This document shows, one piece after another, positions 2,035 through 55,483 of a stretch of DNA of 64,000 bases. Every line of letters starts with the position of its first letter. Position 1 is the stretch's first letter. The notes under the pieces are model-generated. The model ran no database searches, had not been told where the DNA came from, and saw only the letters and a list, made by a program, of their open reading frames with translations. The stretch lies in the IMG/VR virus record IMGVR_UViG_3300027983_002388. The stretch is one strand, 5' to 3'. Source of the DNA: a virus (lineage: Duplodnaviria; Caudoviricetes). The translations under genes and the position numbers were made by a program.

Positions 2035-2728
2035 CACGATCAAAGAACATTTTCCAATGCGACCAATCTGGTCGTAGCCCTCTATTTGCTGGATTGGCTA
2101 ATTTTGCTGTCCATCCAACGAGGGCTTTTTTCATGAATTGGTCTGCTGACCGAATGGGAAAATGAGCCAGATGCAGATGTGGTGAAATCACCATTCGCAA
2201 TACGCCGTCTCCCAAATAAACCTCGTGACACCCCTCTCGCATATGTGTATTCATGTCCAATATTGGACCTGGAATCATTGTTTTGTGCTGATTAGGATTG
2301 ATGTGTTTATTGCGATAGCAGATGTCCCTCAAAATATGAAAATTATCCTCTTTGGTCGGAGCATAGTTCCACCACAATGCCGAAAGAGTGCATGGATAGT
2401 TTTTTGGCAAATCATGAGCAGCCTGTCGAATGTCTCCCACAACGAACTCATCAGCGTCTATTGCCATCAACACAGAAGGCTTGTGTTTCTCTCGAACCTC
2501 TTTAAGAAGACTTGTCATGGCCTCGCCCTGAGCGTGGTAAAAAGAAGTTGACTGAGTCACCGTCAGTGGCAGTCCCTCTTTAACCAAGGCGGCAAGGATG
2601 TCTGAAGTGCCGTCTTTGCTTAGATGGTCGATGATAAACACATGATCGAAAATTATAGCATGATACCTGACAAACAATTCAATGATGTCAGCTTCGTTGC
2701 GAACAATACTTATAACAGCACTTTTCAT
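1811..2728 (-). CDS. Glycosyltransferase family 2-like (GT-A)
   Basis: ISIVRNEADIIELFVRYH, IDHLSKDGT, AIDADEF, HLAHFPIRS. Confidence 0.85.
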   Translation of the reverse strand: MKSAVISIVRNEADIIELFVRYHAIIFDHVFIIDHLSKDGTSDILAALVKEGLPLTVTQSTSFYHAQGEAMTSLLKEVREKHKPSVLMAIDADEFVVGDIRQAAHDLPKNYPCTLSALWWNYAPTKEDNFHILRDICYRNKHINPNQHKTMIPGPILDMNTHMREGCHEVYLGDGVLRMVISPHLHLAHFPIRSADQFMKKALVGWTAKLANPANRGLRPDWSHWKMFFDRAKKGIAPSLPELQSLALGYTVDHHAQEIDLMYDPVSCIGIDIKYPYDGKYQPFEALADAAELLAAELGLSDSLA

Positions 2729-3738
2729 GGTAGCTTAATGCCCTTCTTTTTCAACAATGATTGTTGAATGAAATGACCCCAATGCTGGGACATAAACTTA
2801 TCATGCCACGGCAATATTTCTTTGCTAATTCCCCGTGACATATTAAAAAGAATCTCTGGATTATCTTTTAAGAAAAGAATCTTCTCTGCACAGGCTTCGG
2901 CATTGCGATCAATGATGAATAAATTTTTGAAGTAATCGCAATAACCAACCTTAGTCATAATAGGAACACACCCACATGCGGCAGCTTCGTGTAGAGTGCA
3001 TGGACCACCTTCAGAAATAGACAAGCAAACGAACACCTGACATTCATTGTACAATGAATTCATTTCTTCTGGAGTCCGCTTGTTGTTGAATGAATCGGTA
3101 AGAATCTCAACAAATTCAATGTCGGTTCGATGGGCGAGTAATTCTTTAACCCGTTGCCAGATCGGATAACCCTTGTGATCCAATCGAACAATGCTCGACG
3201 AAAAGAAAACCTTGAACTTTCTTTTCTGAATTGGCATGTCAGGACCAAATACATGCAAATCTACACCATCAAATGTTGTGTAGATATTGCTGAATCCTGC
3301 TTTGGAAAAATTTTCGTATGCCCAAGGATTGTTGACAGACAAGGCATTGAATACAGCATATCTTCTCAGATCGTTTTGAATCAACTCCAAAGGAGTAACC
3401 TCGTTCTGAGTCAGAATAAACTGCGTGCCTTTTTTGTTTTGGTCGGCAACAAAAGCAAACCAACGATCATAACCAGGGACGTTATAGCCGTGAAGATGCC
3501 AAATCACATCGTACTTTTTTTGTCTCATCATATCTTCCCAATAACCAAATTCAGGGGCGAGATCACAACGAGCGTAGCCGATGTCTATTTCAAATTGTGG
3601 CAGATACTTTCTGTATTGATGTCCTTTAATGTCGAAGCTCCAGTTGGGAACATCAGCAACATAAAGCACTTTTGGCTTAATGGAATATTCAAATAAATGA
3701 GGCGGATTTAGATTGAATAAAGTGGTTTCTTGACTCAT
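2725..3738 (-). CDS. Glycosyltransferase family 4 (GT-B)
   Basis: VFVCLSISEGGPCTLHEAAACGCVPIMTKVG (EX7E motif); start moved to MSQETT. Confidence 0.8.
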   Translation of the reverse strand: MSQETTLFNLNPPHLFEYSIKPKVLYVADVPNWSFDIKGHQYRKYLPQFEIDIGYARCDLAPEFGYWEDMMRQKKYDVIWHLHGYNVPGYDRWFAFVADQNKKGTQFILTQNEVTPLELIQNDLRRYAVFNALSVNNPWAYENFSKAGFSNIYTTFDGVDLHVFGPDMPIQKRKFKVFFSSSIVRLDHKGYPIWQRVKELLAHRTDIEFVEILTDSFNNKRTPEEMNSLYNECQVFVCLSISEGGPCTLHEAAACGCVPIMTKVGYCDYFKNLFIIDRNAEACAEKILFLKDNPEILFNMSRGISKEILPWHDKFMSQHWGHFIQQSLLKKKGIKLP

Positions 3739-51206: not shown

Positions 51207-51595
51207 AATTTCACATCAAGAAGAATGCCCACTTTGAGGCTCGTATATACATTGGCAATCGTGTCAAGTATAACGGGCCTCAATTTTCTTTTGCCGAGCT
51301 TAGAGAAGCCATTGGATATTTCCAATCAAACAATGGAATTGAGGCGTCCAATCCCGTTCGTATAACCCCCACAACATTTGTTTGGGAAAAGTACGATGAA
51401 GAGGGATGGGAAATCGCTGTAATTGATTACCCAAGGGTCAGCAAGCCGCATAGTGTTTTGCGTGAGTTTGCATACAACTTGGCAGTTCATTTGTTTGAGA
51501 GGTTTGAACAGAACCGAATGTCTATTGTTTTTCCCGACGAGATAGTTATGCTGGAGGCCGATGACGCAGAAGAAAACAAGTACAACCAAAAGTAA
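51203..51595 (+). CDS. Hypothetical protein (130 aa)
   Basis: ATGA-coupled ORF. Confidence 0.75.
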   Translation: MKFHIKKNAHFEARIYIGNRVKYNGPQFSFAELREAIGYFQSNNGIEASNPVRITPTTFVWEKYDEEGWEIAVIDYPRVSKPHSVLREFAYNLAVHLFERFEQNRMSIVFPDEIVMLEADDAEENKYNQK

Positions 51596-51611
51596 TCGCA
51601 AGGAGAAAAAA

Positions 51612-54600
51612 GTGCCTGTAGTAATCAAAGCTGAGGATCAGCCTGTTGTTGTAGCTACATCTGATTATCCTTACGCCAAATGGAAGTTTGAGACGTTCAA
51701 TCCGGTTCAAAGTCGGATTATGGATTTTTATGACAAGGATGTAAACGGTCTTATCGCCGCTATGACTTCAGCAGGCAAGACAGTCGTAGCTGAAATGTTT
51801 CTTGCGCAAGAAATTCGTAAACGTGGTGGCAAGGGCATGTTCCTTGCTCCTTTGCGTGCATTGGCTCGTGAGAAAATCACCGATTGGAAAAACGAGAATT
51901 ATCACTTCGCCGACCAGAAAATTTCTATCTGCACAGGTGATTATAGGCTCACAAAAGAGCGTGCCAAAGAATTGAATGATGCCAATCTCATCATCATGAC
52001 TTCGGAAATGTTAAATCACCGCAGTCGCAATCATAAGGCCGAACAAAATAATTGGCTTCTTGATGTTGGCACGTTAATTATTGATGAATGTTTGTCTCCA
52101 AATGCAATAATTGAAACAGATCAAGGTCCAATTTCTATTGGAGACATCATTGACAAAAATCTGGATGTTAAAGTTGCATCCATGAATCACTCAACCAAAC
52201 AAATTGTATTCAAAAAAATAGTTGCTCGTCAGAAAAAGTTGTTAAAAAGAAGATGGCACACCATATATTATGACGGTGGGCATATTTCTGCGACATCAAA
52301 TCATTTGGTGTGGTGTGAAAATCGTGGTTATATTCCCTCTAAAGACATTCAAGAGGGAGATGTTATTTATGTACGAGGAATTAACGAAGAGAGAAAAACA
52401 AGTAATATTGGGAACTTTACTGGGAGACGGTTCGATAGCTCGACTTCCGCACGGAAAGTCAGCAAGATTGAGGGTTCAACAGTGTTCGGCTCAAAAGGCT
52501 TTAGTCGAATGGAAGTACAACGAGTTGAAGCGATTGGTTGGCACCCCTCCACAAATCAAACCGAACCAAGGGTACGGAAAGGAAGTGTGCAGATTCAACA
52601 CATTGTCAAGCAAAATGTTGTTGGCAATACATTCGATGTGTTATCCACGAGGGAAGAAAATAGTAAATTCTCAGTGGTTGGACGAGATCACCGATCCGGT
52701 GGCATTGGCGGTGTGGTACATGGACGACGGAAGCCAGGGTCCAAGTATGATGGCAATTCACACCGAGGGCTTTCCCAAATCAGAAGTGGAATTGTTAGCG
52801 CATTGGTTGGAAACGAAATGGTCGGTGGCTTGCGAAGCCTATCCGACAAAACAATATTGGCAACTCAGATTTCCAGCGAAGGGTCGGGATCGTTTTCAAG
52901 AACTGGTTCGTCACGAAATAATTTCAGACATGAATTACAAGGTGCTGCCAAAAATGGAGCAGATATTTTGTTCGATGTGTGGTCAGAAATTCATCGCAGA
53001 TCGCCGCAGTCTTCATCAAGTCAGGAAGGTCATGCTTTGTGGGGCCAAGGAGTGTCGGTTGAATTGGGACAGGATGTACAGCCGGACGGAGACATGGATT
53101 CAGAGGAATCTTGGTGTTGCGACTTAGAAGTTGAATCTGATTGTTTTGAAGATTGCAATTTTTTTGCAGATGGAGTTCTTGTCCATAATAGTCACTTGTT
53201 GACTGTTCCAGGTCGTGGAGATCACCTGGAAGTTGGACTCATGAAGTTCACAGAGATCAATCCCAAGGCTCGTCTCGTGTTGCTTTCAGCAACGATGCCT
53301 AATGTAGAAGAGATTGCCGACTGGATTAGTTATTCTTTGACCAAGCGTGAAACTTTCATGTTGCGGTCCAAGTATCGACCAGTGCCTTTGACTCTTCACT
53401 ATGAGTCTTATTACGACGTAGGCAGATACGATCAAGTCGAAGAAGAGAAGGTCAATAAAGCCCTTGAAATTATTGAATGGTATCCAGACGACAAGTTCCT
53501 TGTCTTCGCCCATACAAAGCGTACTGGCGAATTGATGAAGCAAAATTTGCGATCATTGGGCATTGAAGCTCAATTTCACAATGCTGATTTGCAAGCTGAT
53601 GAGCGTGCTAAGGTGGAAGATCGTTTCAAAACTGATCCTAAGCTACGGGTCATTGTGGCTACATCGACTTTGGCATGGGGCTTAAACCTTCCTGCTCGAC
53701 GTGTGATTATTTTGGGCGTCAATCGAGGAATTGGCGAGGTTGAAACTCACGATATTCTTCAGATGGTCGGTCGATCTGGTCGGCTGGGAATTGATCCGAT
53801 GGGTGATGCGTACATCCTCGTTCCTGAAAGTGAAGAGGCAAAATATCGTCAGAAATTCAGCAAGCCGAATCGTATTGAATCCCAGCTTTTAGAAAAAGTT
53901 GGTGACAAATACAAGGTGTTAGCTTTCCATCTTGTTAGTGAAATTCATCACGGCACTGTGTCAACAACCGATGATGTTCATGCTTGGTATAAGCGGTCGT
54001 TGGCTTATTTCCAAAACAAGGCTCTGGATGAAACTGTTGTAGACCAGACTTTAGACTTACTGCGGAAATGCAGTGCGGTTTGGAAAGAAGATGCTGTTGA
54101 AGGTGAGACGGATGAAAAATGGATTTGCCGACCTATTGGGAAAGTTTCCAGCATGTTTTACTTCAGTCCATTTGATGTCTCGGACTTGTATTTTAACTTC
54201 AAGAATTTATTCCAAGACAATAAAGAGGACGACGATTACTTCGTGTCAACGGCTCTGGGAAATATTGATGGTCAGAGAATGAATATAGTTTCTCGTATTG
54301 AGAAAGAAGAGATGAGTCTTTATGCCGCAAAGGTGCGGACCTTGATGCCAGGGAAGTTCTTCAATGATGCCTCTTTGAAGGCTAGTTTTTGCTACTTCAA
54401 TTTGTTAAATGGCGTGAACAGCCAAGCCTGTGCCACAACGCAAAGGAATCTTCAGTTCGATTTCAATCGGCTGTCACAGGTTCTTCAGTCGCTCGATACA
54501 TTTGGCGGCAATTGGCAACGTGAAAGTTACTTCAAGATTCTTGAGGGGCGTATTACCAATGGGGTTCCAGTTCACTTAGTTGATCTTTGTCGTTTGGCAA

Positions 54601-54776
54601 ACATTGGCAAAGCACGAGCTACGAAGCTCTATGAAGCTGGATTTAAGACTGTTGAATCGGTTGCTGATATGGACTTTGAGAACTTCAAGAAGATTGTCAA
54701 CAGTACGGGTAAATCCATGAAGGTAGACGCAGCTAAGGAAGTGTTTGAATCTGCCAAGGTGTTCGCTTTGCTTTAA
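51612..54776 (+). CDS. Ski2/Hel308-like SF2 helicase interrupted by an intein
   Basis: FNPVQ, MTSAGKT, IIDE|intein|SH, LSATMPN, ATSTLAWGLNLPA, QMVGRSGR, C-terminal HhH; SD AGGAG before GTG 51612. Confidence 0.92.
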   Translation: MPVVIKAEDQPVVVATSDYPYAKWKFETFNPVQSRIMDFYDKDVNGLIAAMTSAGKTVVAEMFLAQEIRKRGGKGMFLAPLRALAREKITDWKNENYHFADQKISICTGDYRLTKERAKELNDANLIIMTSEMLNHRSRNHKAEQNNWLLDVGTLIIDECLSPNAIIETDQGPISIGDIIDKNLDVKVASMNHSTKQIVFKKIVARQKKLLKRRWHTIYYDGGHISATSNHLVWCENRGYIPSKDIQEGDVIYVRGINEERKTSNIGNFTGRRFDSSTSARKVSKIEGSTVFGSKGFSRMEVQRVEAIGWHPSTNQTEPRVRKGSVQIQHIVKQNVVGNTFDVLSTREENSKFSVVGRDHRSGGIGGVVHGRRKPGSKYDGNSHRGLSQIRSGIVSALVGNEMVGGLRSLSDKTILATQISSEGSGSFSRTGSSRNNFRHELQGAAKNGADILFDVWSEIHRRSPQSSSSQEGHALWGQGVSVELGQDVQPDGDMDSEESWCCDLEVESDCFEDCNFFADGVLVHNSHLLTVPGRGDHLEVGLMKFTEINPKARLVLLSATMPNVEEIADWISYSLTKRETFMLRSKYRPVPLTLHYESYYDVGRYDQVEEEKVNKALEIIEWYPDDKFLVFAHTKRTGELMKQNLRSLGIEAQFHNADLQADERAKVEDRFKTDPKLRVIVATSTLAWGLNLPARRVIILGVNRGIGEVETHDILQMVGRSGRLGIDPMGDAYILVPESEEAKYRQKFSKPNRIESQLLEKVGDKYKVLAFHLVSEIHHGTVSTTDDVHAWYKRSLAYFQNKALDETVVDQTLDLLRKCSAVWKEDAVEGETDEKWICRPIGKVSSMFYFSPFDVSDLYFNFKNLFQDNKEDDDYFVSTALGNIDGQRMNIVSRIEKEEMSLYAAKVRTLMPGKFFNDASLKASFCYFNLLNGVNSQACATTQRNLQFDFNRLSQVLQSLDTFGGNWQRESYFKILEGRITNGVPVHLVDLCRLANIGKARATKLYEAGFKTVESVADMDFENFKKIVNSTGKSMKVDAAKEVFESAKVFALL
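52089..53189 (+). mobile_element. Intein (367 codons) inserted in the DExH Walker B motif
   Basis: Starts CLSPNAIIET, block B SATSNH, ends CCDLEVE...NFFADGVLVHN followed by Ser+1. Confidence 0.95.
52369..53127 (+). CDS. LAGLIDADG homing endonuclease (252 aa) in the +1 frame inside the intein
   Basis: ILGTLLGDGSI and LAVWYMDDGS motifs; C-terminal CSMC...CGAKEC; SD GAGGGAG 9 nt upstream of ATG 52369. Confidence 0.9.
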   Translation: MYEELTKREKQVILGTLLGDGSIARLPHGKSARLRVQQCSAQKALVEWKYNELKRLVGTPPQIKPNQGYGKEVCRFNTLSSKMLLAIHSMCYPRGKKIVNSQWLDEITDPVALAVWYMDDGSQGPSMMAIHTEGFPKSEVELLAHWLETKWSVACEAYPTKQYWQLRFPAKGRDRFQELVRHEIISDMNYKVLPKMEQIFCSMCGQKFIADRRSLHQVRKVMLCGAKECRLNWDRMYSRTETWIQRNLGVAT

Positions 54777-55483
54777 CGGCGAATTTTGCGAGTCTTGGTG
54801 ATTCTTTCTAATAGCTTCTGTTTGCTGATGTAGGTTTTCTGGACGCCAGTTCTCACTGAGCGTTGCTTGAACGCAGCAAATGAAGCCGAGCCACTGCACT
54901 CACCTAATAGACTTCCAGTGCTGCTCACCAAACAGCATGAGCAGCAATGCGCAGATGGCGGTGTAATAGACACTCCTACGCCACCACAATCTCCCACAGA
55001 TACGCTGGTTCCTCCTCCGTTTATGGAGCAACCGAAGGGAGCGCCGCAAGCATCGCTGCATCCTGACAGTGACACTGTTCCAGCACCAATTGCCGTAAAA
55101 GAAAATCCTGATCCATACAGACAGCAGCCTGATGTTGACAGGGTGATAGTAATAGTTGAGCATGGAATAGAGCAAGTCGGGACTGAAGTGTCTGGCACTG
55201 ATCCAGTGGTTGCTTGCGCATAAACATATCCATCACTGTCTTCTATATCAAACAGATATGCTTGATAATCAAAGTCTGGAAAATCAACATCTAATTCAGG
55301 CGCACGAAGGGGAGCAGGCACAGCAATAGGCGCACAATCACATCCGGGCGGATAAACACTTGAGCTTGTTCCACACAAATACACATAGGTCCAGCTTGTG
55401 TAGCATGGACATGGTGGGCAACACTTGCAGTTGCAGCCGCAATAGCTGCCAGTTCCCAAGCAATATGGAGGATTACATGCCAT
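54773..55483 (-). CDS. Cysteine-rich protein (25 Cys) with basic C-terminus
   Basis: CGCNCKCCPPCPC..., Ser/Thr/Gly-rich middle; starts directly after the upstream stop. Confidence 0.7.
   Translation of the reverse strand: MACNPPYCLGTGSYCGCNCKCCPPCPCYTSWTYVYLCGTSSSVYPPGCDCAPIAVPAPLRAPELDVDFPDFDYQAYLFDIEDSDGYVYAQATTGSVPDTSVPTCSIPCSTITITLSTSGCCLYGSGFSFTAIGAGTVSLSGCSDACGAPFGCSINGGGTSVSVGDCGGVGVSITPPSAHCCSCCLVSSTGSLLGECSGSASFAAFKQRSVRTGVQKTYISKQKLLERITKTRKIRR

Follow-up and report, generated by a model that had tools for sequence, protein, structure and literature searches.

Does the homing endonuclease of an intein have to lie within the splicing polypeptide, or can it be kept as a separate gene in a second reading frame of the same DNA? 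This question is raised by an intein in a helicase gene within a 64,000-nucleotide stretch of viral DNA (Duplodnaviria; Caudoviricetes; IMG/VR record IMGVR_UViG_3300027983_002388), the whole of which we call the window. An earlier note, made from the letters alone, had described intact splicing motifs in the helicase frame and a LAGLIDADG endonuclease in the +1 frame, and had set this layout against the in-frame endonucleases that inteins normally carry. We consider it probable, at roughly 0.8, that the locus is a mobile intein inserted at the Walker B/motif II site of the helicase (IIDE/SHLL; a slash marks the insertion point here and below) with its homing endonuclease overprinted as a separate gene. 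The overlapping gene is supported by the analyses below; the layout is not unprecedented, given other out-of-frame and antisense cases and a homologue of this very endonuclease in a bacterial dnaX gene.

An intein in a phage helicase gene and the endonuclease laid over it

The helicase open reading frame (ORF), 51561-54776 on the + strand, has 1071 codons for amino acids and stays open through the insert without a stop. Because Pfam detects in it a DEAD domain (residues 47-177; PF00270, E 5.5e-19), a Helicase_C domain (residues 630-743) and a C-terminal HHH_5 domain, the host gene is predicted to encode a Ski2/Hel308-like superfamily 2 (SF2) helicase of a freshwater phage. The insert of 367 codons separates ...LIIDE from SHLLTVPG.... 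Four relatives without an intein (L007-L010) encode helicases of 698-704 aa that read IIDE/SHLL, and comparison with them gives the insert as exactly 52089-53189. The junction DNA of these alleles is GATGA[AG]/AG[TC]CAC, and their flanks, ATTATTGATGAA/AGTCACTTGCTGACTGTT, are almost identical to those of the window; the natural empty site in L008-L010 reads ...ATTATTGATGAA/AGTCACTTGCTGACT.... The intein-less site GATGAA/AGTCAC, which the earlier note had reconstructed, is thus the exact junction in L007-L010.

The splicing blocks reported earlier, C1, T-S-N-H, CCDLEVE and VHN/S, were all found within the insert. The N-terminal motifs, C1 and block B (T69-S-N-H72), are invariant in two related inteins, those of the viral contigs L002 and L004. 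At the C-terminal end, CCDLEVE (block F) is followed by GVLVHN/S in the window and by HN/C at the junction of the homologues, and the pattern CCDLE.E...NFFA.GVLVHN is invariant among them. Since curated hidden Markov models (HMMs) are marginal here, the insert is identified as an intein by its catalytic residues and the empty alleles; TIGR01445 gives 24.7 bits against a cut-off of 24.5, a margin of 0.2 bits, and does so with the excised N-lobe only (residues 1-100).

Between the two splicing lobes the helicase frame reads as a linker without a stop and without a family match in a Pfam scan. The earlier note had called it rich in glycine, serine and arginine and free of motifs. The second part holds, while the first describes the window (37% G+S+R) better than the homologues (26-30%), and because of this difference we read the richness as a probable by-product of the overlap. 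An AlphaFold2 (AF2) model of the whole intein, built with only 3 sequences, has a mean predicted local distance difference test score (pLDDT) of 36.7; residues 1-50 score 64-82 and residues 95-341 below 50. As a weak result, this profile fits a structured HINT core with an unstructured spacer.

The +1 frame across the linker encodes the complete two-motif endonuclease with a Zn-ribbon tail that had been noticed from the sequence (Table 1). It matches PF03161 (LAGLIDADG_2) with E 3.8e-32 and 112 bits against a gathering cut-off of 25, covering profile positions 1-164 of 168, and also matches a PHROG of LAGLIDADG homing endonucleases. Of the catalytic acidic residues in the two motifs, D119 and D120 do not vary among 52 homologues and D20 is kept in at least 90% of them. 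An AF2 model of this enzyme, built with 52 homologues, has a mean pLDDT of 92.9 and a predicted template modelling (TM) score of 0.81; the Zn-ribbon tail appears in it as two short strands followed by a helix, with its cysteines conserved among homologues. Foldseek returned as top PDB matches I-WcaI (6x1j; E 2.7e-15, TM 0.70/0.77, root-mean-square deviation 2.2, 27% identity) and I-SceI (TM 0.70/0.78), and the intein-type enzyme PI-PfuI was a far weaker structural match (TM 0.50/0.30). The model thus points with high confidence to an endonuclease of the intron-encoded or free-standing I-SceI type, with a pseudo-dimeric alpha-beta-beta-alpha-beta-beta-alpha fold. It is a candidate new I-SceI-type meganuclease whose natural target is known.

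Table 1. Features of the intein locus in the window (positions of the whole stretch).
Feature	Position	Strand	Basis
N-extein, predicted Ski2/Hel308-like helicase; ends at Walker B/motif II, ...LIIDE	51561..52088	+	PF00270; intein-free alleles IIDE/SHLL
Class-1 intein, 367 codons, in the helicase frame	52089..53189	+	C1, TSNH, DLEVE, VHN/S; boundaries fixed by intein-free alleles L007-L010
N-terminal splicing (HINT) lobe, blocks A and B	52089..52368	+	Helicase-frame dN/dS 0.18-0.34; identity 70% to L002, 57% to L004
Shine-Dalgarno-like GAGGGAG, in intein codons CAA-GAG-GGA-GAT (Q-E-G-D)	52353..52359	+	9 nt before ATG 52369
Homing endonuclease gene, 252 aa, predicted I-SceI/I-WcaI-type monomeric LAGLIDADG with C-terminal Zn ribbon	52369..53127	+ (frame +1)	PF03161, AF2, Foldseek
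Frame-0 linker, about 245 codons, stop-free, otherwise apparently unconstrained	52371..53105	+	0 stops against 14 expected; identity 35%/30%, dN/dS 2.1/1.35
First LAGLIDADG motif VILGTLLGDGS, catalytic D20	52402..52434	+	G15 and L17-D20 (near-)invariant in 52 homologues
Second LAGLIDADG motif ALAVWYMDDGS, D119/D120	52702..52734	+	W116, D119, D120 and G121 invariant in 52 homologues
Zn-ribbon tail CSMC...LCGAKEC	52969..53055	+	C201, C204, C224 and C229 invariant in three diverged homologues
C-terminal splicing lobe, blocks F and G; holds the endonuclease TAG (53125-53127) in D-L-E	53106..53189	+	Homologue alignment
C-extein, begins at S+1 (SHLLTVPG...), with Helicase_C and HHH_5	53190..54776	+	Pfam; intein-free alleles

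Selection on the two frames

The same +1 layout recurs in diverged relatives. The endonucleases of the viral contigs L002/L003 and L004 are 71% and 56% identical, respectively, to that of the window, and their helicase ORFs run through the intein for 1075 or 1037 codons. Searching metagenomes with the alignment of endonucleases yielded 80 loci, which were checked for a second spanning frame, and the spanning ORFs were identified by Pfam; nine further loci showed the +1 arrangement.

A helicase-frame stop is created whenever T, as the last letter of an endonuclease codon, is followed by a codon that begins with AA, AG or GA. The window endonuclease has 66 such risk junctions, before 27 AA codons, 26 GA codons (together the 53 K/N/D/E codons counted by the earlier note) and 13 AG codons. 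None of the 66 is preceded by T, although 51 of the 253 endonuclease codons end in T, and C is enriched there. When synonymous codons were shuffled within the endonuclease, with protein and codon usage kept, none of 20,000 permutations was free of helicase-frame stops; 13.95 were expected where the window has none (Poisson ~9e-7), and the third frame contains 13. The earlier suspicion that chance was a very unlikely explanation is thereby borne out. Likewise, L002 and L004 have no stops against 16.7 and 16.0 expected (0 of 20,000 permutations each), nor do eight further +1 loci, for which 10-20 were expected (0 of 5000 each). Pooled over 11 non-redundant +1 loci, T occupies 1 of 891 risk junctions as against 30% of other junctions, a figure that is descriptive and not a probability, since the sequences are related.

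Alignment of the inteins of the window, L002 and L004 is gap-free across the overlap, and the sole indels, of 3 nt and 12 nt, lie near or after the endonuclease stop. For the three pairs, identity over the overlap is 71/56/55% in the endonuclease frame, where dN/dS was not computable owing to saturated dS, and 35/30/33% in the helicase frame, where dN/dS is 2.1/1.35/1.04. The N-terminal splicing lobe, read in the helicase frame, shows 70/57/63% identity and dN/dS of 0.21/0.34/0.18. Variable alignment columns track the endonuclease codon phase (46/33/72% at positions 1/2/3). With the endonuclease frame conserved and helicase-frame dN/dS at 1 or more, the comparison shows that purifying selection acts on the endonuclease frame, the intein frame across the spacer being selected only to stay free of stops and in phase. 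The proposal that both frames are selected is thus strongly supported by the conserved layout, the rarity of T at risk junctions and the frame-specific substitution pattern, with the intein frame selected for openness alone. A decaying endonuclease was considered and rejected.

The reading frames are also supported by independent assemblies. The stretch is present in metagenome runs of nine studies, covering freshwater, estuary, soil, aquatic, glacier and microbial mat samples. Contigs from four runs of four studies differ from the window over 51900-53400 by few substitutions and by no inserted or deleted letters, which settles the concern about assembly indels. One contig, at depth 363, spans the whole of this interval, although this DNA may have been derived from it; the start of the endonuclease gene (52249-52721) is also crossed by independent pieces, as are, jointly, its end and the C-junction (52572-53280).

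Proposed expression, splicing and homing

Both ends of the endonuclease gene are embedded in intein codons. The ATG falls within TAT-GTx (Y-V) codons, and the TAG at 53125-53127 lies inside GAC-TTA-GAA, the D-L-E codons of block F, where the earlier note had placed it; GAC/T-TTA-GAA encloses the TAG in all three aligned inteins, and ATG and TAG occupy identical positions in all helicase-clade members. The Shine-Dalgarno (SD)-like GAGGGAG that had been pointed out in the Q-E-G-D codons is indeed present at 52353-52359. At its position the homologues have GGTGAT, GGAGAC or GGGGGAT, so that a G-rich stretch 8-10 nt upstream of the ATG is shared. An SD-like 4-mer is found for 32 of 62 long ORFs in the window as against 15% of random positions. 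A promoter scan found one weak site on the + strand at 52242-52271 and, with 8 sites in all against 4.1 +/- 1.9 expected, gave no evidence of an internal promoter.

These features suggest the following course of events. The helicase mRNA would be translated in frame 0 straight through the intein, with the HINT lobes (residues 1-~95 and ~340-367) joined by a spacer of ~245 residues that is the -1 reading of the endonuclease gene, and the intein would splice in cis to give a 704-aa helicase. Ribosomes would also initiate at ATG 52369 in the +1 frame, yielding a free 252-aa monomeric LAGLIDADG enzyme of the I-SceI/I-WcaI type with a Zn-ribbon tail. In mixed infections, this endonuclease would cut intein-less alleles at ...GATGAA/AGTCAC..., and repair would copy the intein in. 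We infer three of these steps: that the precursor splices over the spacer, that ribosomes start independently at 52369 and that the endonuclease cleaves the empty site, the first of them because selection keeps the host frame open.

The same overlap of two frames on one mRNA would also allow the endonuclease to be made by a programmed +1 frameshift, as a fusion of N-extein, N-terminal intein half and endonuclease, with non-shifted ribosomes making the precursor. In the window, no stop interrupts the endonuclease frame over the 33 codons ahead of the ATG, from 52270 on, and candidate starts of the terminase-clade members (see below) have no obvious SD, as a frameshift would permit. Independent initiation is nevertheless favoured because the ATG is preceded by an endonuclease-frame stop at a distance of 1 codon in L004 and L013 and of 6 codons in L002, which leaves almost no room for a shift site. 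The ATG, moreover, falls in the same column in four diverged sequences with the G-rich stretch ahead of it, and the related endonuclease of L014 is free-standing; we give a frameshift very little credence. We regard as improbable, too, that the open helicase frame is a relic, either of a split intein from which the helicase would be rebuilt in trans or of a non-functional element. The helicase of L013 offers this explanation some footing, with a host-frame TGA near the end of the overlap and possible restarts before block F. Against it, some 14 stops per copy would be expected if read-through were irrelevant, yet the 11 non-redundant +1 loci contain a single stop in all, and overlap indels are multiples of three; such a pattern requires selection for a continuous precursor. 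An artefact of assembly or sequencing, or two recent frameshifts that cancel out in a canonical intein with an in-frame endonuclease, might be entertained, as family members do occur in frame in other inteins at equivalent DE/CH sites (L005, L012 and L026). A recent frameshift would, however, have left about 14 frame-0 stops, the four runs of four studies show no indels, and diverged independent assemblies share the layout; the permutation test, the intein alignment and the agreement of contigs rule out both an artefact and a recent double frameshift, to which we attach practically no probability.

Several observations weigh against an overprinted, separately translated endonuclease in a working intein. 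The SD is not conserved as such, only a GGxGA stretch contributed by the intein G-D codons, so that selection on the SD cannot be separated from selection on these conserved codons, and the terminase-clade endonucleases show no clear SD. In the search of sequencing runs, no RNA run contained this stretch. Two further intein HMMs stay below their cut-offs (PF14890, 24.0 against 35.8; TIGR01443, 14.7 against 15.6), and disorder of the linker is only suggested, the whole-intein AF2 model being poor. Finally, the one host-frame stop in L013 means that either openness is not absolutely required or the L013 copy is dead. Stops in the intein frame of homologues, which the earlier note had named as a sign against its reading, are therefore confined to this single case among the 11 non-redundant +1 loci.

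The distribution of the intein is consistent with mobility. The exteins of the intein-free L007-L010 are 90-92% identical to those of the window, and the intein-bearing L002 and L004 reach 65% and 46%, slightly below the identities of their endonucleases and HINT lobes. Such a patchy pattern, in which close relatives lack the intein and distant ones have it, is the expected product of a homing element. In the glacier run X7, extein-flank contigs have depths of 14-17.5 and intein pieces 3-6.5; the depths are crude and no joint contig is reported, and the gap could reflect coexisting intein-free and intein-bearing alleles.

Relatives, precedents and evolution of the dual-coding intein

Among the nine further +1 loci, all with the host frame open, L015 and L016 are in related helicases, L022 is in a ResIII helicase (ADE/C...SN/CHHV), and L017-L020, L025 and L028 are in the large subunit of T4-type terminases (VV/C...SN/CDE). 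The terminase loci (for example L018:91-2766) have LAGLIDADG_2 endonucleases of 320-380 codons and a stop-free host frame. In L016 (3-2720), the intein with the +1 endonuclease is cut by the contig end, and a second intein lies downstream in the Helicase_C region (...GDGVISHN/CNLPARRV). Two loci have the endonuclease in the +2 frame of an open host frame, the helicase gp40 of Xanthomonas phage FoX3 (L001) and Leptolyngbya dnaX (L095). FoX3 is a cultured phage; the intein of its gp40 (L001:1896-4262) reads LWDE/C...VHN/CHHL, with the endonuclease at 2327-3085, and the gene is labelled only 'putative DNA helicase' in GenBank and 'head morphogenesis' in the RefSeq copy. In-frame endonucleases are found in L005 (XPD-like helicase), L012 (KLEP7 RNA ligase) and L026 (a terminase), and most remaining loci, in various hosts, are free-standing.

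L013 and L014 show other states of the family. L013 is a GC-richer related helicase with the same intein and +1 endonuclease, split into ORFs 714-2255 and 2274-2897; its TGA, at 2253-2255 near the end of the overlap, comes from a TAT/GAA codon junction, and possible restarts precede block F. The copy may have been inactivated recently or be on its way to a split intein, or the stop may be an error of sequencing. In L014 (1887-3505), a free-standing endonuclease 53% identical to that of the window is nested in the helicase-intein +1 clade, with a support of 99 in the Shimodaira-Hasegawa-like approximate likelihood ratio test (SH-aLRT); it directly follows a 259-aa UvrD-like ORF that ends in ...FDLVFL and a stop, just before the expected Walker B DE, and no intein lobes were seen around it.

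In the endonuclease tree, the intein-associated rows, whether +1, +2 or in frame, form one group of 23 (SH-aLRT 92) apart from 50 free-standing rows, and the helicase +1 and terminase +1 clades are each supported (99 and 97). The in-frame and +2 rows are on long branches; the tree forces at least two changes of arrangement and leaves a single +1 origin undecided.

Inteins with endonucleases in alternative ORFs have a history. Two preprints trace such non-canonical inteins to Gorbalenya 1998 (bioRxiv 10.64898/2026.09.14.751524; bioRxiv 10.1101/2025.01.02.630785), so the concept of an out-of-frame intein endonuclease is not new and the layout is a rare, already known one. The closest precedent is the cyanobacterial dnaX intein with an out-of-frame LAGLIDADG endonuclease analysed by Phillips, DeSimone & Gogarten (2026), who describe SD motifs and a low omega for the endonuclease frame against a high one for the host frame (bioRxiv 10.64898/2026.09.14.751524). 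In our scan, the out-of-frame endonuclease of Leptolyngbya dnaX (P0101) is 39% identical to that of the window over 145 aa (E 2e-21), and its intein is inserted at VIDE/CHML, directly after the Walker B DE. The two inteins share this site, homologous endonucleases of the I-WcaI-like LAGLIDADG type on the same strand in another frame, an SD-like motif, a host frame that continues through a low-confidence spacer, and the same frame-dependent selection. They differ in that the endonuclease is offset by +1 in the window and, as in FoX3, by +2 (equivalent to -1) in dnaX; that the host is a phage SF2 helicase rather than a bacterial clamp-loader subunit; that the Zn-binding module is C-terminal in the window endonuclease, unlike the N-terminal Cys clusters of the dnaX enzyme; and that the splicing domains are barely similar.

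Actinophage inteins carry antisense LAGLIDADG, antisense VSR-like and frame-3 endonuclease VII-like ORFs, and invasion of an intein by a free-standing endonuclease has been proposed for them (bioRxiv 10.1101/2025.01.02.630785). They resemble the present case in their phage hosts, many in the terminase large subunit, and in encoding the endonuclease as a second ORF across an in-frame spacer that lacks structure. Unlike that survey, which has no sense-strand out-of-frame LAGLIDADG, our loci, in helicases and T4-type terminases of environmental phages, encode a LAGLIDADG_2 in the +1 frame of the sense strand. In fractured genes, split inteins flank a free-standing endonuclease gene (Dassa et al., 2009; PMC2677866); there, too, the endonuclease is expressed apart from the splicing domains and phage replication genes are targeted, and L013 is a possible intermediate. 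The window host gene, in contrast, is a single uninterrupted ORF of 1071 codons, kept that way by selection, and splicing would accordingly be in cis. ShiLan likewise has an overprinted endonuclease within an insert that gives no host-frame stops, but it has no splicing domains and the insert stays in the host protein, whereas the window has intein blocks A, B, F and G. As in canonical inteins such as PI-SceI and PI-PfuI, an endonuclease-coding insert splits the HINT domain and the element would spread by homing; unlike in these, the endonuclease lies outside the intein polypeptide and is of the PF03161 I-SceI type.

To these precedents the present case adds the +1 offset, the phage helicase and terminase hosts, and a phage clade with which the dnaX endonuclease can be connected. 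Another addition is a much more AT-rich setting, where avoiding stops is a far greater demand: 14-20 would be expected here, as against 3-5 for FoX3 and dnaX. In these GC-richer hosts, stop-free permutations do arise, in 1 of 5000 for dnaX and 157 of 20,000 for FoX3 (0.02-0.8%). The locus is therefore an unusually clean natural instance of dual coding, many diverged copies of an AT-rich gene having a second frame that stays open for 245 codons. It bears on whether inteins can splice across a long arbitrary spacer while the endonuclease is made separately, both of which are suggested here by sequence, and the spacer indicates how much unrelated sequence an intein scaffold may tolerate. For intein evolution, it supports the notion that splicing domains came first and free-standing endonucleases invaded later, and it brings together, within one endonuclease family, in-frame, +1, +2, split and free-standing forms.

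More tentatively, and with the odds somewhat against it, these loci could represent one old lineage of overprinted intein and endonuclease that moves between unrelated P-loop NTPases at their Walker B sites (Ski2-like and ResIII helicases, T4-type terminases and bacterial DnaX), keeps its dual coding, and interconverts with in-frame, split-intein and free-standing states. If so, the dnaX endonuclease of cyanobacteria, which the 2026 preprint could not trace to its origin (bioRxiv 10.64898/2026.09.14.751524), would have come from this phage lineage. How the overlap began is a matter for speculation. A fresh insertion or frameshift would presumably not be stop-free in an AT-rich gene; the overlap may have originated in a GC-rich genome and spread with continuous purging of stop-creating changes, or it may have passed through a trans-splicing split stage. 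The L013 TGA, a single change synonymous in the endonuclease, illustrates how one state can be converted towards the other.

Gene callers and databases systematically mishandle such loci. In L013 and L095, the called genes include the endonuclease but only a shortened host gene, and close endonuclease homologues (P0004-P0006) are named 'recombination protein RecA' by JGI. As for the window itself, blastn against GenBank phages gave as its sole match a 66%-identical piece in the huge phage LR756511, and the helicase is missing from the nearest virus record (G001), a fragment of 11.5 kb. The helicase gene has as its convergent neighbour a gene for a Cys-rich protein (MACNPPYC.GTGSYCGCNC.CCPP...; window 54773-55483, - strand), and the same neighbour is conserved in L002/L003 (L002:6358-7086, - strand).

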